This document shows, piece by piece, positions 26,894 through 57,914 of a stretch of DNA of 64,000 bases. Source of the stretch: a virus (Duplodnaviria; Caudoviricetes). The stretch lies in IMG/VR virus record IMGVR_UViG_3300021426_000077, positions 36,428-100,427 of that record. One strand, given 5' to 3'. Below the pieces are notes generated by a model. That model saw nothing but the letters and a program-made list of their open reading frames with translations, ran no database searches and had not been told where the DNA came from. Positions within the stretch are counted from its first letter, which is position 1. Every line of letters begins with the position of its first letter. A program made the position numbers and the translations under genes.

Positions 26894-28134
26894 TAAATAT
26901 CACCTGCTAAGAATCTTTCAAGAGCTTCGGCTTCAGCTTCAACTTCATTATCAATGAAATTACCCCAATCTTCAGCTTCTTCATCTGTGAGTGTTTCTGC
27001 CTCAGCCTCTTCCGCAGACGTTACAAGGCCCGCATTTAAATCAATTTCTGAATTTTCAGCTTTCTCAAGCTTCTCAATATAAGATTCAATTAGATCGCCA
27101 AGACCTAATTCTTCACTTACAAGAGCATAATTATAAGCTTTAAGGTCTTTAATAGTAAAGTCTATTTTATCTTGCGGATACTGGTCTGGATCAAATTGTG
27201 GTAAATTAGGAATTATACCTCCATCTTGTTCACAAAGACGTACTAATTCTCCAATAGAAGAGAGAACTTGCTGTCTATCTTCTTTATTTTGAGCTTCAGT
27301 AAACTTACCGCCTTTGCGGAGTTGGTCAAACACGCCCGCGAGATTCTTATATCCTGTTAAATCTCCAACATCTAAACATTCATCCATTTTAAGAGATGTT
27401 TTGCACATCTTTTTTAAAACTTCTTCTCGGTCTGTATTTAATTCGTACTCTTGGGCATATTTATTATACATTGTTTCCATTTTAATTCATTGTTCTGGAG
27501 TATAAACAGTACCTCATTTTAGCATTAAATAATTTATATCTTCTTCTGTGAGTTGATCTGTCCAATAAGTAGCTGAGATTTGATATTGCGGCGTCTGCTC
27601 TTGCGGTGTAGAGGGCTCAGCCGCATCTTCCATTTCTACAAATTGAATATTTTCAGAATAAGGTACATCTTTAGCATTAGTACGAGTTAGAGTATCATAT
27701 TGACCTTGAGAAATTTCTCCAGCTTGAAGTTTTTCTAATAGCTGTTTCTCATAGTCCTCATCATTTGTAGATTCTTCGTTTTTATCTTCTGCAGGATCGG
27801 GCTGTTTTAAGTGGTCGGAATCCGCAAATGTGTAATCCGCATATTGAACCATATTCATTGTGCGTAAGTAAGTACCTATTACAGATTTGGGTCCAAATTT
27901 AGCTGGATCTTTTAAATAGCGTTCATTTGTAATTTGAATTCACTTTTTTTCAAAATATGGAACATCAAACATTTCTAATATTCAAAGAAAAGTTTCAGGC
28001 TTGCGATTATCTATATATTGTGTTAAACAATCTTTACATAGATCGCATCGTTCACCTGTTTTCATTTTAAAGAAGTCAGTCTCTTTTAATGAGCGCCCGC
28101 ATTTACTGCAAGTTTTTTTACCTACAGTTGGCAT
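26893..28134 (-). CDS. Zn-finger protein upstream of terminase (possible small terminase; TGA=Trp)
   Basis: CSKC...CKDC N-terminus; track fragments in one frame; stop overlaps terL start. Confidence 0.7.
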
Positions 28135-28146
28135 ACTTCCTCCTTT

Positions 28147-29223
28147 CTATTTATTTTTAGCGCGGCTTGCGTTTTTGCAATCTTTACATTGAGAATACCA
28201 GCCATCTTTGCTCGAATTCTTCGCATAGAATAGCGGGTGTCCTAATTTCACTCGGCCGCATTTACTACATTTTTTTCAATATCCTTTTTCTTGATAAGTA
28301 TAATATCAAATAACATAATCTTTCGCATATTGTTCTGAAATTAATTTAGGAATTCTTTTGCGCCATGTAGTTGAATAATATTGTTCGCTATGTCATTCTC
28401 CAAATTGATCATATAGCTTCTCTTGGATTTGTTCATTAGTAAGACCATCTATCTTATAGATTAAAAGTCACCATAGAACAGGATATTTATATTCAAGAGC
28501 TTTAGCTGCGGTATTTTCTAAGTCAATTAAATGTCAGTGCATATCAGAATGAAGATCTTCTCAACATTCTTGTTTTAAAATCTGGTAGTATTGAAGAAGG
28601 AAAGATATATGCTCTGAATTGAGAAGAGATAGGGGCATATCAGAATGCGGCATTTGCTCTTCATCAAAATAAATTTTTTCTGGGATGGGGATATTAGCTA
28701 ATGTTCTTATCTGAGATGCAGATTTAATTCTACCAATTTGGTTAAATGACCCTTTAATTAAATAAGCTTGTTTTCAAGTATCAATGATAGCTTGATTTAA
28801 TTGCTTGCGTTTGTATTTAGATGCAGTAGTAAGTTGATTTTTTAAAGAGACAATTACATCCATACATTCTTTAAGACCTGGGATAGTATCTATATCTTCT
28901 TCTGTAATAGGGTCTTTAGGGTCTAGAATTTGGCCTTTATCTACTCGGATAAGATTATAAATACCATCTTCGCCATTTTCTAGCTTATCAACTAAACCTT
29001 CATAGGATACTTGCCTCTTATCAATTGTAAACTCTCTATTGGGGGTTAATATAGGATATTTTTCTACTCGTTCTTTTTTAGTTTGGTTGCGGTCGTGTGT
29101 AAATAATATGTAATCTGCTAGTATTTTTAAAGTTTTACTATCATTAAGAGGATGATTTCCTAGAAGATCTTTTACGTAAGCTACTCTTTCTTCTGGAGTA
29201 GTAAGTGAGTAATCTAATTCCAA
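28147..29223 (-). CDS. HTH plus C-terminal Zn-finger protein, candidate late transcription regulator (TGA=Trp)
   Basis: KIDGLTNEQIQEKL...HSEQYYSTTWRKRIPK HTH-like segment; CSKC...CKDC; at least 7 in-frame TGA. Confidence 0.65.
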
Positions 29224-29397
29224 TGGAAAACCTCCTTTAGTAAAAATTTTTTACCTTTGTTAAAAGTATAACATATATCTAAGAGGTTGTCAAGGGGAAT
29301 TCCTGAAAAGATTAAAATTTTTTTGATAAAATAAATAATTTATATCGACAAAATAAATTTATTTTGGTAAAATATAATTAAAGAGAAAGGAGGAAAT

Positions 29398-29565
29398 ATG
29401 GGACGAAGAATGTTAACTAAAGGCCTTAAAAGTACACTTGGTGGAAAGAAAGGATCAGCAAAGAAAAAATTGATTAGTGAACTTAGTGGTGTAGGAATTA
29501 ATGATTCTAAACTAAATAAAGGAACTAGTAGACAACGAAGAATTAAAGATACTCTAGATTGGTAG
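29398..29565 (+). CDS. small basic hypothetical protein
   Basis: AAAGGAGG RBS, MGRRMLTKG... Confidence 0.5.
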   Translation: MGRRMLTKGLKSTLGGKKGSAKKKLISELSGVGINDSKLNKGTSRQRRIKDTLDW

Positions 29566-29571
29566 AATAAG

Positions 29572-29769
29572 ATGATTTGGGCGATTTTTAGTTCTGATAA
29601 GCGATATATTATTGATTTTTTCAAGGGAAATTCTGATGATTGTTGGAAATATGTGCAGAAGCATAGCTATAATTGTGGGATGATTGGATCTATAAATGAA
29701 GATGTTGTAGACCTATGGAATGATGGATGGGAATATCTTGATGGAATGTGGATAGCTCCGAAATCATAA
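29572..29769 (+). CDS. hypothetical protein
   Basis: ORF track; follows the previous gene. Confidence 0.5.
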   Translation: MIWAIFSSDKRYIIDFFKGNSDDCWKYVQKHSYNCGMIGSINEDVVDLWNDGWEYLDGMWIAPKS

Positions 29770-30041
29770 TTGAAAATTGCTCTTGACATTTTTTTGGACG
29801 TGGCAAATCTATATCCTACCTCGCAGGTAGGAAATAACCCACAACCATGCGCCCAGTCGCAGCGTTTTAAATCCAGGTCAAGCATGGAGGTAATTGCTTA
29901 AATAATTTATTCAACTAATGAGCAATGTCGAACTGTGCCCCCGTCTTTGAGAAATGTGATGATTTTGTGAAAGTACTATGCAAGCCGGTCAAAGAGTGCT
30001 ACTCTTTAACTAAAGAGAGGACCAGAGAGAAAGGCAAGACA

Positions 30042-30242
30042 ATGACAACCATTAAGACAAATAAGGCCTATGAAACAAAGGCTTACGAGGGTTTCGCTAC
30101 CTATTTCCCTGCAGGCGACACCGCTACTATCACCGCAGAGTACACTACTAAGTGGGGTAAGATGTATGACGTAACCACCGCACACAATGGCAAGTATAAC
30201 GTATCCGAAACGGTTCTGAATCAGATTTTGAATCTGAACTAA
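30042..30242 (+). CDS. early hypothetical protein
   Basis: GAAAGG RBS, MTTIKTN..., downstream terminator. Confidence 0.6.
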   Translation: MTTIKTNKAYETKAYEGFATYFPAGDTATITAEYTTKWGKMYDVTTAHNGKYNVSETVLNQILNLN

Positions 30243-30439
30243 AAAGGGAATTTCATTCCCTTTTTTTAAATTGGCAGAGTTAGAATGCGGTAACTTTTTC
30301 CAGGAGATAAAAGGTTAAATAATTAAATGTTTGATGAGCGGGATCCAAGAGAGTAAGAAGATCTCACAGAGTAAGGACGTGCGGCCGCTGCTCTTGTCAC
30401 GCTCGCCTAGCTGTCCGAGCGGCTGGCGTGGCTGGCTCG

Positions 30440-30540
30440 CTGTGCGTGCTATGTGTGTAGTGTTGTGCATGTGTGCTATGTGTGTTGTGTTGTATCATGC
30501 ACATGTGTATCATGTGTGTATGTATGTGCAAATGCACAAC
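30440..30540. repeat. TG/CA-rich low-complexity tract
   Basis: atgtgtgtagtgttgtgcatgtgtgctatgtgtgttgtgttgtatcatgc... Confidence 0.8.
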
Positions 30541-30729
30541 CGTGGTTGGCCGAAAATTTTAGCACTACACGCAGAGCAATGCAAGCGACAATCGCAAGAT
30601 TCTTAGAAAATTTCTGTATGTGTAGGAAATGTGGAGAGTCTACAATTTTGTCATTCTCACGTGCGGCCGGCCTAAATAAGCGTATTATATTAATCAAGGA
30701 AAGGCACACCAACCCGAAAGGACAAGACC

Positions 30730-31005
30730 ATGACCGCCTACGCCAACCTCCGCAACGTCCTCGCTACCATGTACGCTGCTAACTACTTCGCTGATGATGC
30801 CGATGTTTCTAACGACCTTATTGATGCCTACACCAACGCACAGTTCGACCTCGAGGACCACCTCTTCGACACCTGCCGCACCTCTGCAGACTTTGACCAC
30901 GTGCATGAGCGTTTCGATAAGATGGTAGAGCGCGCAGCTCGTACCGCTTCTAAGGGCGATGCAAACTTTATCGCCGCTGTGATGGACGACATTCATCAGT
31001 GGTAG
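30730..31005 (+). CDS. early hypothetical protein
   Basis: GAAAGGA RBS, GC3-rich codons, terminator 31007-31035. Confidence 0.7.
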   Translation: MTAYANLRNVLATMYAANYFADDADVSNDLIDAYTNAQFDLEDHLFDTCRTSADFDHVHERFDKMVERAARTASKGDANFIAAVMDDIHQW

Positions 31006-31521
31006 AAAGAAAGAGCCAAACGGCTCTTTTTTTCTTTGTTTAAAAAGTTAGCCTAAACTAACATTCTAAAGCCTTTTGCGGTTTGGCTTATTTAAATAAG
31101 CCTTTTGACTTATAAAGCCTTAGAATAGCTTAGAATGGCCCAGACGGCGTATTTTTTTAGTTAGGTGCCTTATTATCGCATGTAATTATGTAGTATTTAT
31201 GAACCCTTAAAAAGGCTCTGAGAGTTTGACATTTGCATTAAAGTATGGTATAATTAAAATGAATGTCCAGTATGGCCGAAAAAGTTAGCCTAGGTTAACT
31301 GTAGAAAAATCGAACACCAGTTCGCGTGTATGGCCGAAAATTTTAGCACAGTGCGCGGCAAAAGTCAAGAACTATTTTGTGTCTCCACAAAATCTACACA
31401 ATTCATCCAGGTTTCCTAAAATGTGGAGATTATGTGTAGATTATTTCACAACTCTTTACTCCAGGCTGTTGACCTGCGAAAATAATAATTGACCAAAGGC
31501 CACGACCACTTGGAGCACACC

Positions 31522-31980
31522 ATGAACGACCTCACACTCCACACCAACTTTTGCGACAACTACACGCGCGCGGCATTTACCCATGATTATATTTTTGCTT
31601 TCACGCTTGACCACATGTTTTACGCGGTCAAGATGGACAATGTAGACGCTCGAACGCTTGTTCTGTTTACCACGCTTGACCGCGCCGCAAAGTCTAAGGG
31701 CGGTGCCGTGTCCCTGCGTTTCCGTCCCACGAACGCTATAAAGCGCGCTATCGTGGAAATGGGCAATGTAGTCTATAAGTGCACCGCCGCTAGTTTCGCT
31801 GCCCTTTGCGAAAGCAACAAATACAATAAGGGCGAGAACGCAGAAAAGCTCGTTACCGAAAAGGTTTTTGGTGAAACGTGGCATAAGGATAGCGTACCGT
31901 TTACCGATGGCGCAGACGTGAGCCATTATCAGGTCAAGTTTCAGGGCGCTACGTTCTGCAAAGAAACGCAGCTCTTCTAA
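31522..31980 (+). CDS. early hypothetical protein (possible nuclease fold)
   Basis: NKGENAEKL...DSVPFTDGADV...YQVKFQGATF. Confidence 0.6.
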   Translation: MNDLTLHTNFCDNYTRAAFTHDYIFAFTLDHMFYAVKMDNVDARTLVLFTTLDRAAKSKGGAVSLRFRPTNAIKRAIVEMGNVVYKCTAASFAALCESNKYNKGENAEKLVTEKVFGETWHKDSVPFTDGADVSHYQVKFQGATFCKETQLF

Positions 31981-32081
31981 TAAGGGCAAATGTGGAGAGT
32001 TTGTGGAGAACTTGCACAAACCCTTCATATCTGTTATATTGGTATCGTGGAAGAGTGGCCGCATAAGAGAAAGGCGCTATA

Positions 32082-32351
32082 ATGGGAAAGAAGAAGAAGA
32101 AGATTACGCCCGTTGAAGAGAGAGCAGTACAAGCAAAGGCTAATGCCGAGAAACTTGCTGATGTGTTTCGTGCCCTTGGTCTTACTGTAGAAACCTATGA
32201 GTATAACCCTACTTGGCAAGTCAACGCAAAAGAAAAGCCTGAAGTTATTTCTGTAGTAGAACTTCCAGAATTGCTTGACAGTGACGGAGAACTTCTTTCA
32301 TTTTGCTTTTCTCATGACACAGGACGCATTATCAAAAATAGCATCTTCTAG
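32082..32351 (+). CDS. early hypothetical protein
   Basis: RBS and promoter upstream. Confidence 0.6.
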   Translation: MGKKKKKITPVEERAVQAKANAEKLADVFRALGLTVETYEYNPTWQVNAKEKPEVISVVELPELLDSDGELLSFCFSHDTGRIIKNSIF

Positions 32352-32568
32352 CGTCAAGGAGTTATGGAGTTCTCCACAAAAACTCCACATCTTGTGCCGG
32401 CGGATCTCCCGAACAAATGTTCGACTCCAGGCAAATGTGTAGGAAATATGGAGACAAAATTCTCGTTGACAGAACCACTAAAGGAGCGTATTATATTAAT
32501 TGTCAGAGGGAGAGCAAAAGGCAATCCCCAAAACCGAGACGAGGAACGTCTCAGAAAGCAGGTGCCAA

Positions 32569-32904
32569 ATGGCAGAGAAGATGACCCGCAAGCAGGCTCT
32601 CGAGTTCGCAATCTCCAACCTCGAGAACGAGGAAGTCACTGAGGTTCTTGGCAAGATGCTTGAGTCTATCAGCAAGCCGCGTGCCAAGCAGATTAGCAAG
32701 GCTCGCACGATGAACGAGAACACCGCTCATGCACTGTGGGAGGTTTCGCCCGAGACTCTTACCACGAAGGCCGCTACTGAGATGGGTATCCCCGAGATTA
32801 TGACCACTCAGAAGGCTTCAGCAGTCCTTCGCGTGGGTGTGGAGCTTGGCCTTTTCGAGAAGGTCACCGAGGGTAAGAAGGTCACCTATCGCAAGATTGG
32901 GTAG
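32569..32904 (+). CDS. small wHTH-like DNA-binding protein, paralog 1
   Basis: TRKQALEFAI...KPRAKQ...TTQKASAVLR...GKKVTY shared with 37831 and 40145. Confidence 0.7.
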   Translation: MAEKMTRKQALEFAISNLENEEVTEVLGKMLESISKPRAKQISKARTMNENTAHALWEVSPETLTTKAATEMGIPEIMTTQKASAVLRVGVELGLFEKVTEGKKVTYRKIG

Positions 32905-33578
32905 CCATGCGACCCGAGCAAGTCGTTAAAAGGCTCACCCTTGCGAGGGTAAAAATCCTGCCAACCTTTGGGGTAACAGGTAGGCGCTAGTTGGCTTCGG
33001 TCGCTAGCGCCTTTTCTTTTAGCTAAAAATAGAACACCAGTTCGATGTAGATCGCCGGCCGCATTTATGGAGATTTTATGAATTTGAAAATAAGGCTTGT
33101 ATCCTAGATCGAAAAATGCTAAAATGAAAATGCTATTTATCTTCTCTTGGAAATAAAAATCATTTGTGAAGAAAATGTGAATTGAAATTTAGACTTGATT
33201 CCTAAAACTAACAAGAGTATATTATTAATTGAAGAGAGGAACCAAGAGAAAGGAGAAAATTATGGTTCTTGGGTTCGGCTCGGGAGGCGTTCCGCTTCTA
33301 TAATTTGCGGCAGTAGCGAGCCGCATTAAAAATTAGTCGCTACCTTGCAAATGAGAATTCTAGATGCCCTCATTTGCAAGCGAGATTAAAAAACAAAAAT
33401 TAAGACTGTTTCCTCGCCCACGTACTGCCTAGCGCTGCGTGGGCGAGATTGTTTTTTGAAATTTAAAATCGAACTAGTGTTCTGTTTCCTGCGGCCGGTC
33501 GCATTTGTGAAGAAATTGTGAACTGTCCAAAAGTATGATATAATAAGTATAACGAAGTCCAAGAGAAAGAAGAAAACA

Positions 33579-33764
33579 ATGACCATTTACACAAATCTCC
33601 TTCCTATTCTTGATGAATGCAACGACCGCATTCCTACAAAAGAAGGTCGCTACATCATTGTTAAAACTCGCAATGACATGGTCTATCTTATGAACATCGA
33701 CAATGGTGCGCAAGGCGCAATTGCTAAAGATTACTTCGAGAAAGAGTTTGAGCCTTGCGAGTAA
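33579..33764 (+). CDS. early hypothetical protein
   Basis: Cassette promoter plus RBS. Confidence 0.55.
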   Translation: MTIYTNLLPILDECNDRIPTKEGRYIIVKTRNDMVYLMNIDNGAQGAIAKDYFEKEFEPCE

Positions 33765-34566
33765 GATTTTTAATTATTTGGTTAATCAGTTAACCTGCGA
33801 AATCTGCTAAAGTTAGTCTAGGCTAACTCTTTGTGCCGGCTACGCTTATGAAGAAATTGTGAATTGAAAATTATGCTTGACACCGATGCCACACTATGGA
33901 ATAATAATAGTTGAAGCGGATGGGGCACAAAAGCACCAAGTGCGCCGCAAAAGAGTGGTAATCGCTCCACTAAAAAAATTGCGAGGACTGACCCACCTTA
34001 CGGGTCTTTTTTCTTTTTTAAAAAATTTTTGTGACAAAAAAATTTTTTTATGATATAATATAATTATCAAAAGAGAGAAAGGAAAATTATGATTGAGATT
34101 ATGACAAACGTCTACATTGCTTTTAGTTGGTTTTGTCTCATTGTTTTTGGTACTTATGTTCTTTGTTGGCTCGATGAGCACAATTACTGGATGCCACCTA
34201 TCTATGTCGGTTGGGGTGCTATCCTGTTCATTCTTACTCTTATTGTTAACTTCATTAGTTAGGAGAAGACATGACTGTTACAGAACTTATCTTCAAGCTT
34301 CAGCAGGCTTACTTTAAGTATGGAGATGTACCCGTTTATCTTCATTTAGATGAAGAACCCGAGTGCACTGACGTTATTTATCTAGCTGAGGGAGAAGAAG
34401 AAGGCCTACACAATGAAGCGCATTTATGTCTAATGAATTAACCGAACACTAGTTCGGTTTTTTGTGCCGGCCTAGGTTATGAAGATTTTGTGAAGATGGT
34501 TGACAATTCGCTAAGAATAAATTATTATTTAATTGTCGCGTAAAATCAGCAAAAAAAGGAGTAACT

Positions 34567-34791
34567 ATGTTTGACCCCATTTGGTATTGTACTTATGAAA
34601 CTCAAGATGGGTGCTACTATTTTGCAAACAAAGATATTAAAATACTTTGTTCTGCTCTTGAAAAATTTTTTACAGAATTAAATTTGACTTGGGAACGAAA
34701 AGAAGTGCTGAATGCAAATAAAGAACTTTGCAGTATTCTTTATCGTCCTAATGATGATGATGATGGATGGGTTAGCATTCAACTACGATAA
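34567..34791 (+). CDS. early hypothetical protein
   Basis: TTGACA promoter plus AAGGAG RBS. Confidence 0.55.
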   Translation: MFDPIWYCTYETQDGCYYFANKDIKILCSALEKFFTELNLTWERKEVLNANKELCSILYRPNDDDDGWVSIQLR

Positions 34792-34929
34792 AACTAAAGA
34801 GTTTAGCATTTCTCTACAAAAAATGCACAACTTTAGCCGGCGGTAAATTGTGAAGATTTTGTGAAGAAACTTGCATTTTTAAAATGAATATTCTAAAATA
34901 GTAACCGTCAACCAAGAGAAAGGATAATC

Positions 34930-35775
34930 ATGCAGGCTGTTTACTTTGATATGGATGGTACTATTGCTGACCTCTATGGCGTTGACGGTTGGCTTGAATC
35001 TCTTCACAATGAAGATGTTACCCCTTATGAAGTTGCAAAGCCTCTCTGCAAAGAAATGATGATTCTTAAAAGCATCTTGACTACTCTTCGCAGCTTTGGT
35101 ATCACTGTTGGCGTGATTAGCTGGAGCGCTATGGATGGCTCTAAGTCTTACAATAGTAAGGTGCGACAGGCTAAAAAGGAATGGCTCAATAAGTACTTTG
35201 GAAACGTGTTTAATGAGATTCATGTTGTCAAGTATGGCACTAACAAGAGCCGCATTGCAAAGATTAAAGACAGCATTCTTTTTGATGATAACGCAGACGT
35301 GCGGGCAACGTGGCACGGCAACGCCTATGACGAAAAGAATATTGTCAATGTTCTTTGCGGGATTATCGCGCAACTGAAAAGTAAAGGCATGAAGAAGAAG
35401 AACTATGAAGAAGATTCTTCTGTGCCCTCTGCAAATGGTCACTATGCTTACATTGACAAGATTTGTCTTGCAGATTTGTCTATTATGACAAAGGTAGGCA
35501 AAGCTAGCAACCTTAGAAGCAGGCGTAATCAGCAAGCATCCTATCACTATGCTGACATGGCTAAAACTAGTAATGTAGAGATTAAATATTACTTTGTGTG
35601 CAAAAGCAATGAAGATGCTTTAGCTATGGAGAACGTTCTGCGTGGCGCTATGATGATGGTTTGCCCTTACAAGTTTAAACTAAATGATAGACTTCTTTAT
35701 TGGGATGATGAAATAGTTGAAAAAATTATTAATCATCCTGACGTAAAACGCTGGGCAAAAATTCTTTGTATTTAA
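34930..35775 (+). CDS. HAD-family hydrolase fused to a T5orf172/GIY-YIG-like C-terminal domain
   Basis: YFDMDGTIAD, ILFDDN HAD motifs; C-terminal YAY...KVGKASNLRSR...AMENVLR. Confidence 0.75.
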   Translation: MQAVYFDMDGTIADLYGVDGWLESLHNEDVTPYEVAKPLCKEMMILKSILTTLRSFGITVGVISWSAMDGSKSYNSKVRQAKKEWLNKYFGNVFNEIHVVKYGTNKSRIAKIKDSILFDDNADVRATWHGNAYDEKNIVNVLCGIIAQLKSKGMKKKNYEEDSSVPSANGHYAYIDKICLADLSIMTKVGKASNLRSRRNQQASYHYADMAKTSNVEIKYYFVCKSNEDALAMENVLRGAMMMVCPYKFKLNDRLLYWDDEIVEKIINHPDVKRWAKILCI

Positions 35776-36164
35776 AAGTCAAGTGAGAAAGGAGACTCCA
35801 CAAAGTCTCCACATCTCACGCCGGACGCAATTGTAGAGATTTTATGGAGACACTTGCGTTTTAATCAATTAAAAATTATAATATAATTGTCAAGAGGGGA
35901 CGAGGAAAGGAGTCATCTTCTAGTACTACAAAGGCAAAAGCAGAGGTTTAGGCGTGCGAATGTGAGTAGCCACAAGAAAAGAAACGCCTACCCCGTGGTC
36001 GTCCTAGGCAAGACCACGGGGTTTTATTTTAGGCTTTAAACCGAACTGTTGTTCGATTAGATCGGCCGGCGCGAATTGTGGAGACTTTGTGAATTTAAAT
36101 TTTCTCGAACAAAAATAAAATTATTTGGTATAATTTTATTGGTCCAGAAAGAAAGGAGCATGGC

Positions 36165-36386
36165 ATGGCAAAAATAAATACAAAACGAATGAGCGCAGAG
36201 CAAATTTGTTGCTATCATGCAATAGATAATTGGATGCGCTGTCCTTCTGTTGCAACTTTTAAAAAGTTGTATCGTGATGGCTTTCGTTATCGCTATCCTT
36301 TCAATCCTATTTATAGAACATGGCGTATCTTTTGTAACACTATTTTTGGCAGGTATGCACAAATTCTAGAACAGGGTTACATTTAA
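36165..36386 (+). CDS. early hypothetical protein
   Basis: GAAAGGAG RBS. Confidence 0.55.
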   Translation: MAKINTKRMSAEQICCYHAIDNWMRCPSVATFKKLYRDGFRYRYPFNPIYRTWRIFCNTIFGRYAQILEQGYI

Positions 36387-36523
36387 AAATCAAGTAGTTT
36401 GAGAGTATCTACACAAAAACTCCACGTTCTTAGCCGGCCACAATTGTGAAGATTCTGTGAAGGTATTCACATTCTTTCTATTCTGTGTTAAACTATGTTT
36501 GTCCAGGAGAGAAAGGAAAAAAT

Positions 36524-36743
36524 CATGAATTGGAATCGCACTGTTTATCTCGTTCTCGCTCTCACCATCCTTGGTCAAATTATCGTGCGGGGTAGCTACA
36601 TTTGGGGACAAAGCGCATGGCTTATCGCTAACAGCCTGACTCTTATTCGAGATTTTGCGCTTGACCGTCCCGCTGCTGACAAGGTAAAAAACTCTTGTAT
36701 GCTTGCTATCACTGTCGGTCTAATCGTTCTCTATTTCCTTTAA
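36524..36743 (+). CDS. small membrane protein
   Basis: Hydrophobic segments; RBS before MNWNR. Confidence 0.55.
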
Positions 36744-36811
36744 AAAAGTTCTTGACTTTGTAAATGGAATCCTCTACAATGGAATCATCCAAGAAAGAGA
36801 AAGGAACTGCA

Positions 36812-37027
36812 ATGACTCTTGACAACCTCATTTCCAAGCTTCAAGACGTGCGTGCGGCAAATGGTAATGTTAACATTCAACTGCTTGAGCTGTATGGTAC
36901 TAAGCAGCGCAAGGGAAAGAAAAACTCTATCTTCACCAACGACATTCATCTGTCGTATGCTGAAGATGAAGATGAGCCGATTGAGCAGGCTCCGCAGGTC
37001 AAGTCTAACCCTATTGGATTTTGCTAG
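36812..37027 (+). CDS. early hypothetical protein
   Basis: GAAAGGA RBS before MTLDNL. Confidence 0.55.
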   Translation: MTLDNLISKLQDVRAANGNVNIQLLELYGTKQRKGKKNSIFTNDIHLSYAEDEDEPIEQAPQVKSNPIGFC

Positions 37028-37260
37028 AAAGGTGGTTTCTTTATGCGGGACTACATCGCAGCCTTTGCCATTCTTGTAAATCTTCCTTTGTCTCTTGTTC
37101 TGTTTGTAATTCCAATTCTTGCGATCATTTTTGGCTAACCGAACACTTGTTCGGTTGGCCTGGATCGCCGGCGCCTTTTGTGGAGATTTTGTGAAGACGT
37201 TGACAAATTCCCTGGAGTAGATAATAATATAATTGTCCTCCAAGAGAAAGGAAAAAGAAA

Positions 37261-37464
37261 ATGACTCCCATTCGTGAAAAGTTCAATTTCTACTTTGTTG
37301 GTGAGACTATCGAGGACGAAATTTTCTATCATGAGCCTGACCGTCCTATGTCTCAGCTCCACGCCGAGCTTATCGCGAAAAAGTTCCTGCAGGAATTGGG
37401 TGGCGGGCATCTTGACGCATTCAATTCTGACACAGACGAGTTTGTCTTTGATGTAGAAATCTAG
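37261..37464 (+). CDS. early hypothetical protein (similar to 47684-47866)
   Basis: KKFLQELGGGHLDAF vs QELLETLDGGSFDIY. Confidence 0.55.
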   Translation: MTPIREKFNFYFVGETIEDEIFYHEPDRPMSQLHAELIAKKFLQELGGGHLDAFNSDTDEFVFDVEI

Positions 37465-37830
37465 CGTAGACCGAACTAACGTTCGGTCGAACGCGCCGGC
37501 TTCAAATGTGGAGATTTTGTGAATTTGAAAATGATCATTGCAATGTGATTCCTTTATGTGTTATAATAGAAATGCTAGCCGCTTGCGGCCGAAAAATTTT
37601 ACCACACCGCGCATAAAAAGTCCAGAGGAATCCAGGGTTGTCGGTGAACGGTAGAAAAAGAGCGGCGAACGGTTTTCCCGCAACCTAGATGATCAAATGT
37701 GAAGGAATTGTGAAGGGGCAAGTTTTCTCTTTACAGGTTAGGGGAACAAGCGTATAGTAATAGTCAAGGAAGGGGAACGGAAAAGCCGAACCCCACAACC
37801 GCGGGGACGCCCCGCAGAAAGAAGGTAGTC

Positions 37831-38181
37831 ATGTCTGAGACCACCATCACCCGCAAGGCCGCTCTTGAGTTCGCCATCGCCAACCTTGACAATGCTGAGG
37901 TCTGCGCTGTGCTTCAGAAGATGCTTGACAGCATTTCCAAGCCCCGCAAGGCCACTGAGAGCAAGGCGCGCAAGGTCAATGAGAACCTTGCTAACAAGGT
38001 CGCTGAGCTGATTGCGGATAACCACGCTACGGCTATCACTACCAAGGACGTTGTGGCGCTTGGCATCCCTGAGATTGCTACGACGCAGAAGGCGGCTGCT
38101 GTGCTGCGTGTCGCTTGTGAGCTGGGTAGGTTTGAGAAGGTCGTGGACGGTAAGAAGGTCGGTTACCGCAAGCTGCACTAG
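37831..38181 (+). CDS. small wHTH-like DNA-binding protein, paralog 2
   Basis: Similarity to 32569 and 40145. Confidence 0.7.
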   Translation: MSETTITRKAALEFAIANLDNAEVCAVLQKMLDSISKPRKATESKARKVNENLANKVAELIADNHATAITTKDVVALGIPEIATTQKAAAVLRVACELGRFEKVVDGKKVGYRKLH

Positions 38182-38427
38182 TCCCAAGGGTGAGCGGGGC
38201 ACCCTAAAAACCCCGCATTTTTCTTTTGCTCAAGAGTTAGCCAAGGTTAACTTTTTCCTGGATCTGCCAAAAGTTAGCCTAATCTAACTTTCTGTGCCGG
38301 CGCGAATTGTGAAGAAAATGTGAAGGAAACTTTTTCCAAAAAACTATTGACCCCAGGAGCTAACAAGAGTATATTATTAGTTGTCGGGCGGGCAAGGGGT
38401 CTGCCCTCGGGGCCTTGGAGGTCTATC

Positions 38428-39120
38428 ATGCGTAAGGTTTTTGCTATTCTTGACATTGAAACCATCACGGACGCGCGTCTCGCGTTTGACGTGGCTTGGA
38501 TTGTCTGCGATTCTCACGGTGCGGTTCTTGAGCGTTACAATGCGCTCGTCTCTGAGATTGCAAACGCGCCTTTTGGTTCAACTCTGATTGCCCGCGATAG
38601 CTTCATGCGTAACAAGTCTGATTTCTATCGTGACGCGCTAGTATTTCACTCTGTCCCCGTCAAGTCATTCGCTGAGATTGCGGCAGACTTCGCGGCGATT
38701 TCTGAGCGCTACAATGCTACTACTGTTATGTGTGCCTACAATGCCCGATTTGATTACTCTGTGCTGAATGATAACGCTAACATGTATTATGGTGAGAACT
38801 TCTTTAGCGCAGACGTTGAGGTTGTGGACATTATGACCATGGCACTCGCTACCATTTGCGATACTAATAAGTATGTGCGTTGGTGCATGGTTAACGGTTG
38901 CATGACTGATAAGGGCAACGTAAAGACTAACGCTGAAACCGTGTATGCTTATCTTATGCAGGATAAGGACTACACGGAAGCGCATCACGCGCTGCAGGAT
39001 TGCGAAATTGAATCTGAGATTTATTTTAAGGCGCGTAAGCGTAAGCAGAAGCACCACAAGCAATTTGCATGGCCTGTTTTTGGTTGCGAGGAATGGCACA
39101 AGGTACAAAATCGTAAGTAA
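38428..39120 (+). CDS. DEDDh 3'-5' exonuclease
   Basis: ILDIET, AYNARFD, HHALQDCEIE motifs. Confidence 0.88.
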   Translation: MRKVFAILDIETITDARLAFDVAWIVCDSHGAVLERYNALVSEIANAPFGSTLIARDSFMRNKSDFYRDALVFHSVPVKSFAEIAADFAAISERYNATTVMCAYNARFDYSVLNDNANMYYGENFFSADVEVVDIMTMALATICDTNKYVRWCMVNGCMTDKGNVKTNAETVYAYLMQDKDYTEAHHALQDCEIESEIYFKARKRKQKHHKQFAWPVFGCEEWHKVQNRK

Positions 39121-39426
39121 GGGTAAGGGCGCGCAAGCGCCCTAACCTTTGCCGCAAATGTTAACCTGGGGTAACTTTCCCTGGATCGCGCCGGCCAAGG
39201 TTATGTTTTTTCAAAAATTTTGAGATTGAGTATTGACTGCAGGACTCCAAAGCATTATCCTTTTAAGGGAGGGAGGGAGGGATAGACCTAAATAGTTAAA
39301 TGATTTATGTTCCAGGTCTTCAAAAAAAAACTATTGACTCTCATGCTCAAAGTAGTATCATTAATAGTGAGCAAGGGGACATTGAGAATCGAATAAAGTC
39401 AATCCACTAACTGGAAGGAGTTTAAA

Positions 39427-39651
39427 ATGTGCGACTTTTGCAAGCCTATGACCGTCGAAGAGTGGAAGGAGTTCAAGGAGTGGAAGGACTGCAATCCCTA
39501 CCGTGGGGATGAGCAGGTTGAGTATGAGGGCATCTGGTATGCTCTGAAGCACCGTAAGTTCTTTATTGGTGCAAAATTTGATGGTGGGTACCTCTCTGAT
39601 GAGGTTGAACTCAAATTCAAGTTTTGTCCTATGTGCGGGCGCCCTCTGTAA
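39427..39651 (+). CDS. small Zn-ribbon protein
   Basis: MCDFC...FCPMCGRPL. Confidence 0.7.
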   Translation: MCDFCKPMTVEEWKEFKEWKDCNPYRGDEQVEYEGIWYALKHRKFFIGAKFDGGYLSDEVELKFKFCPMCGRPL

Positions 39652-40144
39652 AGAGGGCGTTTTTCTTTGTGTAAAAAGTTAGCAAAGGTAAATTTTTTGC
39701 GCCGGCTAAAACCTCTGATAAAGTATCTTATGTAAAGTAGATTCTCACGCATTCCCGCAGGTAAAAAGCTTGTATCAGCCGCAAACTCTGATAAAGTATC
39801 TTATGTAAAGTAACCAATTGTTAGTCCGGCCATCGCAGATGGCCGAAAATTTTACCAGGCCTGCAATCAAAAAACAAGACTTGACTCGGCGAACGGTAGG
39901 AAAACAGCGGTAAACGGCACCCAAAACTTGATCGACCGCTCATCCCCAAAAACCTACCGTTCGCCGACCTTTTCTAGCTATTCAGACCCTACAAGCGTAA
40001 TATTATTGGTGGGGAGAGGAAGCGTCCCCGCGAACCTTGAAACTAGAATTTTCTCAAGACCTAAAAAAGGTCTAAAATCTGCCAATTAGCTAGGCACAGG
40101 GTCTAGCTAGAAATAACCCCTACGGGGGAGAAAGGTGGGACACT

Positions 40145-40498
40145 ATGACCACCAAGCAGAACAGCATTACCCGCGCCGATGCCCTCGCTTTTGCTATCGA
40201 GCGTTGCGAGGATAACCCCGAGGTTGTGGAGGTGCTGACCAAGATGCACGCGAGCATTACCAAGCCGCGCGCCAAGCAGGTTTCTAAGGCTCGAGTTGGT
40301 AACGAGCACCTTGCAACCCTCGTCCGTGACGCAGTTAGCGCTCACGGCGATGGTATGGGTACCAAGGACATTGTCAACCTCGGCATTCCCGAGATTACCA
40401 CCACGCAGAAAGCTGCGGCCGTTTGCCGTGTTGCGTGCGAGCTCGGTTATCTGCACAAGAACGTGGACGGTAAGTCGGTTACGTATTCCCTCGCGTAG
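40145..40498 (+). CDS. small wHTH-like DNA-binding protein, paralog 3
   Basis: Similarity to 32569 and 37831. Confidence 0.7.
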   Translation: MTTKQNSITRADALAFAIERCEDNPEVVEVLTKMHASITKPRAKQVSKARVGNEHLATLVRDAVSAHGDGMGTKDIVNLGIPEITTTQKAAAVCRVACELGYLHKNVDGKSVTYSLA

Positions 40499-41251
40499 CC
40501 GCGCGACCTAGGCAAGTCGCTAAACTGCCTAACTAACTTATTCCCGCGCCCTAGGTTGACTAAATGAGAATGAGAGGTCCCTAGGGCGCGGATTGTTTTC
40601 AATTAAAAGTTAACCAGGGTAAACTCTTCGGACGATCGTGGCCTGGAGCGAACAAGTGTTCTAGTTGGCCGGCATGATCGAACAAATGTTCGATTTGCCA
40701 TCGATCGTTCTAAAACTACCGTTCACCGACCCGCAAAGAATTTTGATTTTGACTATTGCATTCTGCCCTCGTAATAGTATCATGGAATTGTACTCAAGGC
40801 GGCGACCAAATAGGCCTAACCGAACCAGGTAGGGTACCTAATGCGCATTATGCGGGGAGGACAAAACAGGTGTACTACCAACACCCCTACCTAAATTACA
40901 GAACAAACGTTCTATCGAACTGGTGTTCGATTTTCAAAAACCGAACTGGTGTTCTATAACGTACTCCAAATCGAACTGGTGTTCCATGTTCGGTCCTGCC
41001 GAGCCGTGCGCACGCATACGGCTTTTTCCCGTGAATTCGCGACTCGCATACGCCCATACGCAAAATTCCTAGAATTTTCCTAAAACCAGCATACGCAAAA
41101 TATAGCATACGGCGCATCTGTAGATTTTCACTTGACAGAACCGCATTTTTATGGTATAATTAAAGTGACGGCCTTTTTTTGCCCCGCACTTTCCTAAAAA
41201 AAGACCCGCACGCCAATCGGCATACGGGCCTTCATGCTAAAATCGCTATAC

Positions 41252-41620
41252 TTAAGCGCGCTTCTGGACGAGAGTTACCTCATACGTTTTACCATCGATT
41301 TCGAAGTGGAGCTGACGCTCAGCATTAGTAATCTCCACTCCATTCTCCGCAATTGCCCCAAGAGAAGAAGCAATAGTATCAATGATCATCCTCTTGGTAT
41401 CATTAGGCTTGCGGGTTCTTGCTCGGGATGACTTGGCCTTCGTGGTTTCTTCAACCTCAGTCTGATCCTTGTATCCCTGCTCTCCCAGGTAGCGCGCAAT
41501 AGCGACCGCATTACTAATCTTTTCTCGGCGAGCCTGCCTAAAGACGTCAGCCGGAATAACGACAGTCTGCGGGGTTCCGTTCTTGTCAGTGAAAGAATAT
41601 TTGACGTCTCCAGGATTCAT
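41252..41620 (-). CDS. hypothetical protein
   Basis: RKPNDTKRMII...ITNAERQLHF...VTLVQKR; RBS present. Confidence 0.65.
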   Translation of the reverse strand: MNPGDVKYSFTDKNGTPQTVVIPADVFRQARREKISNAVAIARYLGEQGYKDQTEVEETTKAKSSRARTRKPNDTKRMIIDTIASSLGAIAENGVEITNAERQLHFEIDGKTYEVTLVQKRA

Positions 41621-41715
41621 GCGGCTCTCCTTAATAGCACATGGGGTGGACCAAGCCCGCCACCCCTCGGGCGTTAACTAGCTATTTACTGTGGCGTTTA
41701 ACAGGCCGCCGCAGC

Positions 41716-42067
41716 CTAGGCGATCTCGAAGGTAGCGGGATCGCTCTTCTTCTCGCCGTCGTGACGGATAACGCGACCCTCACGGCCAAGGTAACGGAGG
41801 GCGGCGCTCATCTTCTGAGCAGAGCAACCAAACTCCGCAGCCATGTCCTTGTTGGTGACAGGCTCATCGTGGTTAGCGAGGGCGTTGTAGACGTTCTCAC
41901 GGAACTCGACAACCTCTGCGTTCACCTTAGGCTTGCGGGGACGAGCAGCGTTCTTCTCGATCTGCGCGATCTTCTTCTCGCAGAAGGCAACGATCTCGGG
42001 GTCGTCAGCCATGTACTCAGCGATGCGGGCGTAGAGGTCCTTCTGGGTGGTCTTGGTCTCGGTCATG
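41716..42067 (-). CDS. wHTH DNA-binding protein (distant member of the same family)
   Basis: VTNKDMAAEFGCSAQKMSAALRYL. Confidence 0.7.
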
Positions 42068-42379
42068 GTAGTTCTCCTTTTCTGCCTTGCGGCTGTCCTT
42101 TGGTCAGCCCCTTTGGCTGACTCTTTGTTTATTGAGGAGGTCATCCTCTCAGGGTTTGGACTTTTTCCTCTCCCTTTTTTCTAATTATATTATATCATGT
42201 TTTTATGTCTGCTGTCAAGTACTTTCTTTTGGTTTAGTTCACTTTATTTTCACGTCTCGTTCATGATTTCCTCCTTCTCCCTCTCTCTTTATATATATTA
42301 TAGCATAAAAGTAGGGCAGCTGACAAGTTTTTTCTTTTGTTTTAGCCATATTTTTTATATATTTTATGCTTTTTTATAT

Positions 42380-55046: not shown

Positions 55047-55171
55047 ATAATTTTCCTTTCTGTTGGGGAAAAATAATTTTACTATATAAATTAAAAATTA
55101 AGTTTAAATTTTAATAAAAAAAGACCCTTATACGAAATGTATAAGGGTCAATATAAACAGAGTATCTTCTG

Positions 55172-55242
55172 AGGCCATATTCAGAATCGAACTGAAGACA
55201 GGGCATTACAAGTGCCTTATTATACCATTTAACTATACGGCC
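55172..55242 (-). tRNA. tRNA-Thr(TGT)
   Basis: Cloverleaf; GGCA-CTTGTAA-TGCC; TTCGATT T-loop. Confidence 0.8.
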
Positions 55243-55263
55243 GCAGAAGATACTCGATATACT

Positions 55264-55340
55264 TGGAGATAACGAGAATCGAACTCGTGTCCAGGCATTT
55301 TCACTTTGGCTTTCAATGCCTGTCGAACCCATCTATCCCC
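55264..55340 (-). ncRNA. mini-tmRNA (tRNA-like domain only)
   Basis: GGGGATA...TTCGAC AGGCATT-loop-AATGCCT GGAC ACGAGTTCGATTCTCGT TATCTCC A; G3:U70 pair. Confidence 0.75.
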
Positions 55341-55575
55341 ATTGGAGCGGGCCACGTTTCAGTACCATCTTACTAGTCGTATTCTAATCCTTTATAAAAT
55401 CATGTCTAGAATTAATTTTATAAATTAAGGTACACCCGCATATAAAAATGACAGGCCCAACCCTATCTGGCAGAGGATTACCCCTGGAGTTTCCCAGCTT
55501 TCACAGGTGACTAAAGTCATATATGCGACCAGGTGGAGAGCCCATTATACCTGCGGGCTCGCTGTTATTGTCATA

Positions 55576-55649
55576 TGGCTGGGACTGAGAGAATCGAACT
55601 CCCATTAGCGGAACCAAAATCCGCGGTCTTGCCGTTAGACGAAGTCCCA
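55576..55649 (-). tRNA. tRNA-Gln(TTG)
   Basis: GCGGA-TTTTGGT-TCCGC; encoded CCA. Confidence 0.92.
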
Positions 55650-55652
55650 ATT

Positions 55653-56156
55653 TTATTGATCAGAATTAATAGGTAGATCTGTACAGAAGAATACGCCAGA
55701 ATGCTTACCTTCAAACACATCTCGAGCGAGATCTTCGTAAAGAGTTGATTCAAAACCATGATAGTCATTTAGATTATCATTATAATATTGAACAACCTCA
55801 TTACGAAAAAGCATATAAGAAACAGGATTAGAGAAAATACTAGGAGTATCAATCATCCTTGACATAATAGGATTATTATGAAAAGCTGCTTCAAATAAAT
55901 CGGCATTAGTATTACCATTATTAGCAGGAACAACCTTAATTGAAAGTGTAACATTTCCAAAATTTTTAGTAGAAGGAAGAAGTTGACCTAATGCATCTGC
56001 TTTGGTTACACCTTCTACATAAAGTGTTAGAATTAGTTCGTCTTCATCAAACTTAATAGTAATATTTGGATCTGGATTAAATAGAGCTTCAATTTTATGA
56101 ACATAAGAGGTCCAAGGTGAAGCAAGTCCTACCGAAGAATTGATTGATTTAGACAT
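55653..56156 (-). CDS. hypothetical phage protein
   Basis: VVQYYNDNLNDYHG...LYEDLARDVF...VFFCTD. Confidence 0.7.
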   Translation of the reverse strand: MSKSINSSVGLASPWTSYVHKIEALFNPDPNITIKFDEDELILTLYVEGVTKADALGQLLPSTKNFGNVTLSIKVVPANNGNTNADLFEAAFHNNPIMSRMIDTPSIFSNPVSYMLFRNEVVQYYNDNLNDYHGFESTLYEDLARDVFEGKHSGVFFCTDLPINSDQ

Positions 56157-56181
56157 ATTCCATACCTCTTTCTATTTTAAA

Positions 56182-56255
56182 TGGAGCGGATAGCGGATCC
56201 CGAGACCGCATCTGGAGCTTGGAAGGCTCTTATTCTGCCTTTGAACTATACCCGC
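56182..56255 (-). tRNA. tRNA-Gly(TCC), atypical T-loop
   Basis: GAGC-CTTCCAA-GCTC; GCGGGTA/TATCCGC-TCCA. Confidence 0.85.
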
Positions 56256-56264
56256 ATATGCATA

Positions 56265-56341
56265 TGGCGCCCTTTGCGAGAATCGAACTCACAACTTTTG
56301 GCTTAGGAGGCCAACGCTCTGTCCTATTGAGCTAAAAGGGC
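56265..56341 (-). tRNA. tRNA-Arg(CCT)
   Basis: TTGGC-CTCCTAA-GCCAA; CCA end. Confidence 0.93.
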
Positions 56342-56377
56342 AAATATAGAAATTCTACATATTGTAGAAGTAATATG

Positions 56378-56453
56378 TGGTACATCCTGTGAGACTCGAA
56401 CTCACGCTCTTTCGATTAAGAGTCGATTGCTTTACCATCTAAGCTAAGGATGT
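56378..56453 (-). tRNA. tRNA-Lys(CTT)
   Basis: TCGA-CTCTTAA-TCGA; CCA end. Confidence 0.92.
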
Positions 56454-56454
56454 A

Positions 56455-56532
56455 TGGCTCCTCAAGTAGGATTTGAACCTACGACACGCGGATTAACAGT
56501 CCGTTGCGCTAACCAGGCTGCGCTATTGAGGA
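56455..56532 (-). tRNA. tRNA-Asn(GTT)
   Basis: CGGA-CTGTTAA-TCCG; CCA end. Confidence 0.93.
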
Positions 56533-56542
56533 ATTTATATAG

Positions 56543-56672
56543 TCGCGGATATATTTAAAACAGTATAATATCGTGCTCTACCTTTGAGCTAAGTAAACAT
56601 TTGTTTACTATTGGATTCGAACCAATAACATCGCCTTTAATCAGAGGAAGTAACTGTTTTACCATCACGCAA
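56543..56672 (-). ncRNA. YrlA-like RNA with circularly permuted tRNA domain
   Basis: T-arm, then loop-closed acceptor AGTAAAC-AAAT-GTTTACT, then D-arm, inside a TGAT..TACTTC terminal stem. Confidence 0.7.
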
Positions 56673-56675
56673 TAA

Positions 56676-57005
56676 TTAACTTATATATTTATTACCATCT
56701 CGTTTTCAAGTTATTTTAGGAGTTAGATTTATAGGTTCTTTTTGATAATCTTCTCTTCATAGCTTATTACTTAAATCTTTAAGAGCTTTTTTAGTTTCTG
56801 GCCCAAGAGGAAAACCATCTAAATCTTCCCATAATTTCTCAATATCTCGATCTTTAGAATGAAAATATCTATCTATGATTCCCGCATAATCATCATACAT
56901 AATTTCTAGAATTCCAATAGGAACCCAAATATTTTGATCTGCGGCTTCCATATCTTCAATTTCATGGATGATCATTATAAAATTATTCTTAGAAAATTTA
57001 GCCAA
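56676..57005 (-). CDS. hypothetical protein (TGA=Trp)
   Basis: Reads through two TGA to TAA at 56676. Confidence 0.55.
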
Positions 57006-57055
57006 ATCTACCTCCTTAAAAAAAAATAAGCCAAAGTAGATTTGGCTATTCTATT

Positions 57056-57718
57056 TTAATCTGTAGCATATTTTCATTCATACCCGTATGCAGTATGACG
57101 CTGATTTTGATTTTTACAAACTCTACCAATGCAAATACTAATATTATTAAGCTGACCTGTTGAGATTTTTTGATCATAAACCCATTGAGCAGCTTCTCTT
57201 TGAGAATTAAAACTTTTTATTATTTGCCCGTTTTTTAAAGCAATAACCTTTTTAGAATTTCTTTTATGAGCATTAATTTGTGTATTTTTAATACCAGAAT
57301 TTAATAATACTCTATGAACAGTATCAGAATCACATTCAAAAACATTACAAATTTCTTTAATTAATTTTCCTTGAGAAAACAAATCAATCATTTTTTGATA
57401 ATCTTCTAAAGAATAAGTCATTCTTCCATCTCCGCCTGGAGTGGCATTATACCCTTTAGAATAACTCCCATAATAATTTATTCAATAAATTTCTCTATCT
57501 GAAAGAATTGAAATATCGCATTCTTCAATTAATTCTATATAAAAATGTTCTGAACCATATTTATTAATTGCTCGATACAAAGGTCTATGTTCATAATCTC
57601 GTCTAGGAGCATCTTTAAGATGTTCTTTAAAACGATCTTCTATCGTAGGTAATAAAGTTTTACCAATATAAACCTTATCATTAATATCATTTTTTATGAT
57701 ATAAATTTTTCCAATCAT
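57056..57718 (-). CDS. GIY-YIG homing endonuclease with NUMOD1-like domain (TGA=Trp)
   Basis: GKIYIIKN...VYIGKT...RFKEH...REIYW*I...GYNATPGGDG...TAYGYEW*KY. Confidence 0.9.
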
Positions 57719-57911: not shown

Positions 57912-57914
57912 ATA

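Follow-up and report, generated by a model that had tools for sequence, protein, structure and literature searches.

LexA boxes are well known as the induction switches of temperate phages, and the small early genes of T4-type phages are reportedly flanked by cassettes that combine a promoter with a stem-loop. Here, we focus on the palindrome GAAC-N4-GTTC, hereafter the GAAC box, which recurs in the early region of an uncultured gut phage (Duplodnaviria; Caudoviricetes). The DNA analysed is a stretch of 64,000 nucleotides, hereafter the window, which is part of the 100,427-base IMG/VR record IMGVR_UViG_3300021426_000077, whose completeness is estimated at 72%. All positions are those of this 64-kb window unless a contig is named.

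The described system to which this locus had been likened is that of GIL01, a tectivirus of Bacillus thuringiensis. According to two reports (PMC4551915, PMC6182141), GIL01 is a 15-kb temperate linear plasmid prophage that does not integrate, its few LexA boxes lie downstream of the P1 start or within P3, and it uses the corepressor gp7 together with gp6, a homologue of the N-terminal domain of LexA. The likeness is that of a Bacillota phage with GAAC-type LexA boxes and small regulators beside them. The difference is that the window has 15 boxes, mostly upstream of promoters, and that the phage belongs to a lineage of about 100-140 kb that is described as virulent (bioRxiv 10.1101/2021.08.26.457843). 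A switch of the GIL01 type, which a preliminary description of this DNA had put forward, did not find support. Indeed, tblastn searches of the record with gp7, gp6 and gp1 gave best E values of 0.41, 0.36 and 0.28, hence no homologue, although small proteins diverge fast and an analogue of gp7 is possible; the LexA domain PF01726 has no match in the record at E up to 1, and the boxes lie mostly outside promoter cores. The comparison holds only in the sense of a Bacillota phage with LexA boxes, as the parts that define GIL01 were looked for and not found.

Number and conservation of the GAAC boxes

The window contains 15 exact GAAC boxes, all of them within 31312-40984 (Table 1), for an expected count of 0.60 in 100 dinucleotide shuffles, of which the richest held 3 and none reached 15. 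All 15 sites lie inside a 13.2-kb island, and the remaining 87,227 bases of the record have none. The preliminary description had counted at least 14 boxes, with a cluster of six copies, and had called for a test of enrichment against the rest of the genome; the count, the cluster (six boxes at 40650-40984) and the enrichment are all borne out. It had also placed the boxes in the spacers between cassettes, which is right for the 14 boxes that lie outside open reading frames (ORFs) but not for box 31652, which lies inside one. Among all palindromes with 4-mer halves and gaps of 0 to 8, the GAAC box ranks first (15 seen vs 0.05 expected in local shuffles), and the other gap lengths stay at background (N3, 0 vs 1; N5, 0 vs 1). 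The longer form CGAAC-N4-GTTCG is found in 8 of the 15 sites. A reading of the motif as a restriction site was set aside, as it is enriched and not avoided.

Boxes are present at the corresponding places in the relatives G001 (8 boxes), G003 (14) and G004 (7), and further relatives carry 7 (L011), 14 (L012), 5 (L013), 6 (L015) and 8 (L016). Ten related loci were projected onto the window, and 46 box-by-relative pairs were scored for the 14 boxes outside ORFs; the cells of this test are interdependent, and because L014 and L016 share part of one contig, a few pairs are counted twice. Differences were counted in 12 of the 368 core cells (3.3%), in 39 of the 184 cells of the 4-bp spacer (21.2%) and in 290 of the 1564 cells of the outer 20 bp on each side (18.5%), which makes the core far more constant than the outer sequence (P = 2e-16) and leaves the spacer indistinguishable from it (P = 0.37). 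Orthologous boxes retain GAAC and GTTC while their spacer drifts, as at 37141, where it reads ACTT, AGGC or AAGT. Constrained half-sites around a free spacer are the pattern of a site for a dimeric protein. The boxes are functional sites whose half-sites are under selection, and they are neither chance occurrences nor hairpins.

This bears directly on a structural explanation, in which the boxes would form hairpins, in RNA or DNA, at which transcripts end, or would act as repeats through which cassettes recombine, an idea modelled on the T4-type cassettes. We consider this explanation very improbable. It can draw on the perfect 8-bp stems of the three boxes that directly follow stop codons (34444, 37141 and 37473), one of which runs into a series of T residues: at box 34444, the extended arms form an 8-bp stem with a T run behind it, which is terminator-like in a scan, while the 8-bp palindrome of box 37141 has no T run. 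Some boxes may in this way double as terminators. When the pairing of the flanks was counted over 76 unique sites, the four positions gave 39, 43, 35 and 20 pairs for 38.6, 36.4, 34.1 and 24.5 expected; the second position thus shows a marginal excess (43 vs 36.4, P = 0.047) and the three others show no excess complementarity. The stem sequence is invariant and without covariation, and most boxes have a separate terminator upstream and arms of only 4-5 bp. Moreover, the motifs of a cassette are kept but the stretches that separate them are not, which indicates that conservation acts site by site rather than on a repeat as a whole. The same features set this locus apart from the T4-type cassettes: both have repeated promoter-associated modules between many small early genes, but the palindrome of this locus has a constant sequence without covariation of paired bases, and it matches a host repressor site.

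Likeness to LexA operators

The Gram-positive LexA operator (Cheo or SOS box) has the same eight core bases and the same 4-bp gap as the phage boxes. To go beyond the core, we used as a reference 33 lexA upstream regions from genomes of the Clostridia class, which is the class of one metagenome-assembled genome (MAG) with a phage-family contig and may not be that of the host. LexA_DNA_bind is present in 108 of 151 sampled genomes of this class. A box with at most one core mismatch lies upstream of lexA in 31 of the 33 regions, for a total of 73 boxes, of which the 68 unique ones make up our empirical matrix; the tolerance of LexA for the spacer was judged from our own lexA and recA reference sets.

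Scored with this position weight matrix, the phage sites reach 14.1-21.8 bits, which falls within the 9.5-22.5 bits (median 18.9) of a reference that may not be the host's. With the lowest reference score as threshold, the whole record gives 16 hits, all inside 31312-40973. The flanks alone score 3.11 bits in the phage and 2.09 in the reference. The base before GAAC is C in 71 and A in 29 of 102 pooled half-sites of the phage family, and C in 76 and A in 43 of 136 in the reference, and an A is preferred two bases out from the core in both. Three is the most usual number of boxes in a lexA promoter (18 of 33 regions), at spacings of 27-35 or 38-41 bp. The phage arrays have spacings of 29-30, 26 and 15-16 bp, and groups of two to four boxes at a distance of about 29-30 bp are found on both sides. 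At the level of sequence, the core, the flanks and the array spacing match those of real LexA boxes, and the earlier identification of the motif as an SOS box is in this way strengthened beyond its 8-base core by the flanks and the 29-30 bp spacing.

We read the boxes as putative operators of a protein that binds DNA as a dimer and has the specificity of Bacillota LexA, the host LexA being the likeliest reader, a reading that we hold to be evenly poised. Its local form, in which LexA would regulate or insulate the cassettes, carries most of the weight that we give to LexA binding as a whole; titration as the main purpose adds a little, and LexA binding of either kind is on balance somewhat favoured. 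LexA binding, the nature of the host and the direction of the effect are our inferences.

Several observations weigh against this reading. The first ones concern the box itself. Sites with one core mismatch are not enriched in the phage (5 vs 4.0 expected), which makes the set of boxes all-or-none, while about half of the reference boxes, according to column counts, have one core mismatch. The spacer is also richer in G/C: the two central positions are G/C in 11 of the 15 phage boxes but in only 5 of 24 recA boxes, G/C makes up about 9% of the lexA counts pooled over these positions, and the centre scores -1.73 bits in the phage vs +2.28 in the reference, so that the A/T-rich spacer preference of host boxes is not followed. 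The commonest phage spacers are ACCA/TGGT and ACTA/TAGT, the former in 21 of 51 sites (window plus four related loci), whereas reference lexA boxes favour ATAT and recA boxes (24 boxes in 21 of 30 regions) favour AAAT and ATTC. G/C spacer centres also occur among real sites, but with a different distribution. With its perfect cores and its free spacer, the phage profile allows less variation in the core, and more in the centre, than host LexA sites do.

Other observations of this kind concern the surroundings of the boxes and their distribution. LexA usually represses from elsewhere than the position taken by the seven boxes that share one register, whose ends lie about 33-54 bp from the -35 hexamer, and most boxes neither overlap nor abut a core promoter. 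The phage has four winged-helix paralogues of its own and a second class of palindrome, AGTTA-N8-TAACT, which means that it has operators of its own. Finally, two more distant relatives are box-poor, with 1 box in 86 kb for G002 and 1 in 105 kb for the L017 contig.

Against the odd spacer stands the number of coincidences that it would take to do without LexA. An independent operator would match GAAC and the 4-bp gap in about 1 of 2304 combinations, and it would have no reason to copy the C/A flank or the 29-30 bp spacing; in our view, this outweighs the spacer, which carries little information even in real sites. Compared with the LexA operator, the differences that are left are a G/C-richer spacer, the lack of imperfect copies and the position of most sites, far upstream of -35 and after terminators.

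As an observation apart, region 7700-8500 of the box-poor L017 contig contains 5-6 copies (0.1 expected) of the palindrome CCGAAG-N2-CTTCGG, at the position that the GAAC boxes occupy in the window. It has the same outer CCGAA/TTCGG as the GAAC box, with the inner base pair swapped and a gap that is 2 bp shorter. Cultured distant relatives are likewise without a carpet of boxes: Enterococcus EF1 has 3, VRE9_4 has 3 and Bacillus PJN02 has 1 box in 134-166 kb.

Promoter cassettes and candidate readers of the boxes

Seven boxes (32411, 33032, 33471, 34444, 36043, 37141 and 37473) share one register with respect to their promoters. The cassette reads, in order, the stop codon or terminator of the previous gene, the GAAC box, about 10 bp, GCCGGC, about 6 bp, the tandem repeat TGTGRAGA-N3-TGTGRA (hereafter the TGTG duplex), -35 and -10. 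These seven boxes lie 3-60 nt after the stop or terminator of the previous gene and 13-26 bp (mostly 22-23) ahead of the TGTG duplex and its sigma-A promoter, which confirms for most boxes the earlier remark that many of them follow terminators rather than cover promoters. The six boxes of the pair and the array are 58-148 bp from the next promoter-like site. When nine sources are pooled, a TGTG duplex is found within 120 bp of 41 of 84 boxes. Of these 41 boxes, 22 have a gap of 22-23 bp to the duplex and 7 have one of 12-13 bp; the two classes differ by one helical turn. All 15 forward copies of the duplex in the record lie in the island, and its position suits an activator or a contact with the alpha subunit; read on the opposite strand, it is TTCACA-N5-TTCACA. 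The typical place of GCCGGC is 10 bp past the GAAC box and 6 bp before the duplex.

On this basis, we propose that the phage has built the boxes into a modular early-promoter cassette, with an array of four to six boxes at the junction of the early region with genes transcribed in the opposite direction. As long as the cell is undamaged, LexA would sit on the boxes, most of which are too far upstream to block RNA polymerase directly. It could rather act, on the same face of the helix, on whatever factor uses the proximal repeat, or serve as a roadblock or an insulator between cassettes; within or just downstream of a promoter, as for box 31312 and the arrays of certain relatives, it may bind an ordinary operator. 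The loss of LexA, through SOS cleavage or through dilution over replicating phage genomes, would then change early transcription. In its widest form, this would mean that the whole early programme of a TGA-recoded, apparently virulent gut phage is wired to the host SOS repressor through at least 15 LexA operators in helical register with a promoter-proximal element, with multi-box arrays at the limit of the early region; we advance this only tentatively. With similar reserve, we suggest that LexA could be both an insulator or regulator of the cassettes and a sensor whose loss, by damage or titration, re-times the infection.

The register also speaks to the second possibility raised by the preliminary description, that of a LexA sponge, in which the boxes would titrate LexA so that replicating genomes switch on the SOS genes without DNA damage. 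The numbers would allow it: with 15 exact boxes per phage genome (and within 10 kb), vs 6-26 in whole MAGs of 0.8-2.2 Mb, part of which are on phage-family contigs, a few dozen phage copies would outnumber the host sites. In addition, all the cores are perfect and there is no excess of weak sites. However, titration needs no position, yet the seven boxes keep a register of 13-26 bp and the array spacings are fixed across relatives. Selection for affinity would favour an A/T-rich, host-like spacer, which the phage does not have, and the number of boxes is not constant among relatives (7 to 15). A fixed, helically phased register points to local action and not to a mere sponge; titration alone leaves this register with promoter elements unexplained, and we regard it as improbable as the main purpose of the boxes. 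The same register keeps the boxes away from promoter cores, and this distance argues against simple occlusion.

Another possibility is that the reader is encoded by the phage itself, the best candidate being winged-helix paralogue 4 or another of the paralogues. The boxes would then be the phage's own operators for timing, for example for the shut-off or insulation of early cassettes, and their likeness to the SOS box would be a coincidence or a deliberate mimicry. We consider this explanation less likely than a reading by the host LexA, though it deserves serious attention. The record encodes four paralogues of about 115 amino acids (aa), and relatives have 3-5. A structure model of the second one (mean predicted local distance difference test score, pLDDT, of 84) is a predicted winged helix, whose best match to known structures in VIA-align has Z 8.3, with a root-mean-square deviation of 1.9 over 67 residues. 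The other matches, with Z 7-8, include Fur, PerR, IclR and MarR-type regulators and Z-alpha domains; LexA is not among the 50 matches listed, which excludes nothing, and Foldseek gave no match for the model in the PDB at E 0.001 or better. A distance of 270 bp separates the box array from the operon of paralogue 4, which also encodes a 122-aa protein, an arrangement kept in all 5 of the 5 relatives that span the region. Strong orthologues of paralogue 4 are found in the box-rich G004, G007 and G008; the box-poor G002 has weak paralogues only, with a 17-bit match for paralogue 4, and the box-poor G009 has none. That the lineage possesses its own operators is clear from the second palindrome and the tandem repeats, and a reader other than LexA would fit the strict core, the free spacer and the lack of any excess of imperfect boxes. 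Contigs from an RNA library cover the paralogue genes, the deepest (word depth 25 vs 3-5) being at 41256-42119 in the leftward operon, although DNA carry-over is possible and such contigs are weak evidence. In one metatranscriptome run, 9% of the sampled words were present; the seven contig pieces include none across a box, with a cover too sparse to call the boxes untranscribed.

On the other side, apart from the improbable match with the SOS box already mentioned, the co-occurrence of paralogue 4 and the boxes is confounded with overall relatedness, since G002 and G009 are also the most distant relatives. Comparisons of the paralogue families with LexA by hhalign gave probabilities of 0.5% and 2.9%, hence no detectable kinship, so a specificity shared by descent is unsupported. 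A further argument for the host LexA as reader comes from other viruses. Three GAAC boxes within about 100 bp are found in at least 121 IMG/VR stretches, and among 80 loci examined for the GAAC pattern, 9 have a dispersed carpet, defined as at least 6 boxes in at least 3 separate places. Seven of these 9 contigs share no detectable protein with this phage and the paralogue family is present in only 1 of the 80 loci, which counts against a reader from this family; a LexA homologue was found in 0 of 80 (tblastn). These counts have to be set against those of two control palindromes, which give 64 and 27 stretches; carpets are seen in 0 of 27 loci for one of them and in 12 of 64 loci, from 4 contigs, for the other. 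As carpets of arbitrary palindromes do exist, the support that IMG/VR lends to a shared host reader is modest and not decisive. For the control GTTC-N4-GAAC, the carpets are very dense in one large viral contig, with 46-52 copies per 12 kb; three other contigs have 21-37 copies at each locus.

If the host LexA is indeed the reader, lytic phages would also read, or drain, the damage signal of their host, and the similar carpets of unrelated phages would reflect a general strategy of lytic phages that goes beyond the prophage switch. A limited literature search for LexA boxes in virulent phages and for LexA titration by phages returned no paper describing such a carpet. The boxes also predict a host of the Bacillota type with a LexA of GAAC-N4-GTTC specificity, and would give a handle on an uncultured, stop-codon-recoded gut lineage. 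If a winged-helix protein of the phage were the reader, this SOS-box-specific factor could act on the host regulon. In either case, a compact promoter architecture is defined, made of the box, GCCGGC, the tandem TGTGRAG repeat and a sigma-A promoter.

The early island and its surroundings

The island (29000-42300) is transcribed on the + strand and has a G+C content of 43-51%, vs about 30% in the flanking late regions, with its peak at the winged-helix genes. Its genes are small and dense, and each has its own sigma-A-type promoter and usually its own terminator. Searches of about 20 early proteins against Pfam and PHROGs gave no informative match. The positions of the boxes and of the features around them are given in Table 1.

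Table 1. Positions of the GAAC boxes and of the elements and genes around them
Feature	Position	Strand	Remarks
GAAC box CGAACACCAGTTCG	31312..31323		about 50 nt downstream of the expected start of consensus promoter 31226-31254; leader of ORF 31522-31980
GAAC box	31652..31663		within ORF 31510-31980; relatives keep the box through synonymous changes
GAAC box	32411..32422		13 bp before TGTG duplex at 32436, promoter at 32466; GCCGGC upstream of the box
GAAC box	33032..33043		about 24 nt past terminator 32990-33018; GCCGGC 10 bp on, duplex 33066 22 bp on
GAAC box	33471..33482		past terminator 33426-33457; 23 bp before duplex 33506; promoter 33516
GAAC box	34444..34455		3 nt past stop of ORF 34271-34441; duplex 34478 22 bp on, promoter 34500
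GAAC box	36043..36054		past terminator at about 35990-36033; 22 bp before duplex 36077
GAAC box	37141..37152		3 nt past stop of ORF 37043-37138; duplex 37179 26 bp on, promoter 37200
GAAC box	37473..37484		9 nt past stop of ORF 37261-37464; 8-bp palindrome; duplex 37507 22 bp on, promoter 37538
GAAC box pair, 30 bp apart	40650..40691		starts 40650 and 40680; GCCGGC between; past terminator of ORF 40145-40498; 58 bp before promoter-like site 40749
Four-box GAAC array	40901..40984		starts 40901, 40917, 40943 and 40973 (spacing 16, 26, 30 bp); right end of + strand island; kept in relatives
Tandem TGTGRAGA-N3-TGTGRA repeats	30619..38324	+	15 copies, each just upstream of a -35 hexamer; promoter-proximal module
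GCCGG[CA] hexamers, mostly GCCGGC	30666..41555		16 forward matches in island 28000-42300 vs 3 in rest of record
AGTTA-N8-TAACT sites	31046-31062, 31283-31299, 33811-33827, 38235-38251, 38272-38288, 39160-39175, 39678-39692, 40609-40623
Repeated leader elements	37587-37680, 39841-39966, 40716-40728, 30548-30563, 31332-31347		no Rfam match
Winged-helix paralogue 1	32569..32904	+	111 aa
Winged-helix paralogue 2	37831..38181	+	116 aa; in the model, residues 43-116 form a generic winged helix
Winged-helix paralogue 3	40145..40498	+	117 aa
Leftward operon	41252..42144	-	paralogue 4 (41716-42066/42144) and 122-aa protein (41252-41620); consensus promoter 42218-42189
GTTC-N4-GAAC carpets	L303-L304, L335, L357-L358		one 179-kb IMG/VR contig; own repeat system

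Promoter 31226-31254, upstream of the first box, matches the consensus at 12 of 12 positions, and box 31652 may be incidental to coding. The four-box array lies at the point where + strand transcription converges with the leftward genes, and a TTGACA hexamer directly precedes an array box in three relatives. Five CATACG[CG] repeats (41015-41112) adjoin the array, and another promoter with 12 of 12 consensus positions (41132-41160, +) aims into the 3' end of the leftward operon, convergent with the promoter at 42218-42189. Region 40985-41230 could be a switch or an origin-like region.

The second palindrome, AGTTA-N8-TAACT (of the GTTAGCC..GGCTAAC type), is likewise conserved in the spacers that carry the GAAC boxes, often immediately ahead of one, and it is the top palindrome in L010 (9-10 copies) and L011 (15-16 copies), where it outnumbers the GAAC boxes. 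We know of no host factor for it. The long leaders before the winged-helix genes also contain repeated non-coding words, GGCCGAAAATTTTA(G/C)C, and inverted arms, CGG(C/T)GAACGGTAG / CTACCGTTC(G/A)CCG, about 55 nt apart.

Concerning the lineage, megablast found no near-identical cultured phage, and structural proteins elsewhere in the window are similar to those of large Enterococcus, Lactococcus, Bacillus and Clostridium phages. The Agate phages, of about 127 kb, are described as virulent gut phages (bioRxiv 10.1101/2021.08.26.457843). Phage_integrase has no match in the 100 kb of the record, which is 72% complete. Phage-family contigs are binned in four Bacillota MAGs and one Nanosyncoccus MAG, and LexA_DNA_bind is present in 4 of these 5 MAGs, such bins being a weak pointer to the host; indeed, the Nanosyncoccus bin indicates that the binning of phage contigs is unreliable as host evidence.

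An explanation of the boxes by tRNA genes or Rfam families was rejected, since the tRNAs sit at 55-59 kb and Rfam gives no RNA family match within 29-42 kb. The tRNAs form a cluster of ten at 55171-58683, which includes a tRNA with a UCA anticodon at 57819-57912 (type SeC in ARAGORN) that fits the TGA recoding of the phage, and a short Rfam match to transfer-messenger RNA (tmRNA) lies at 55263-55340.

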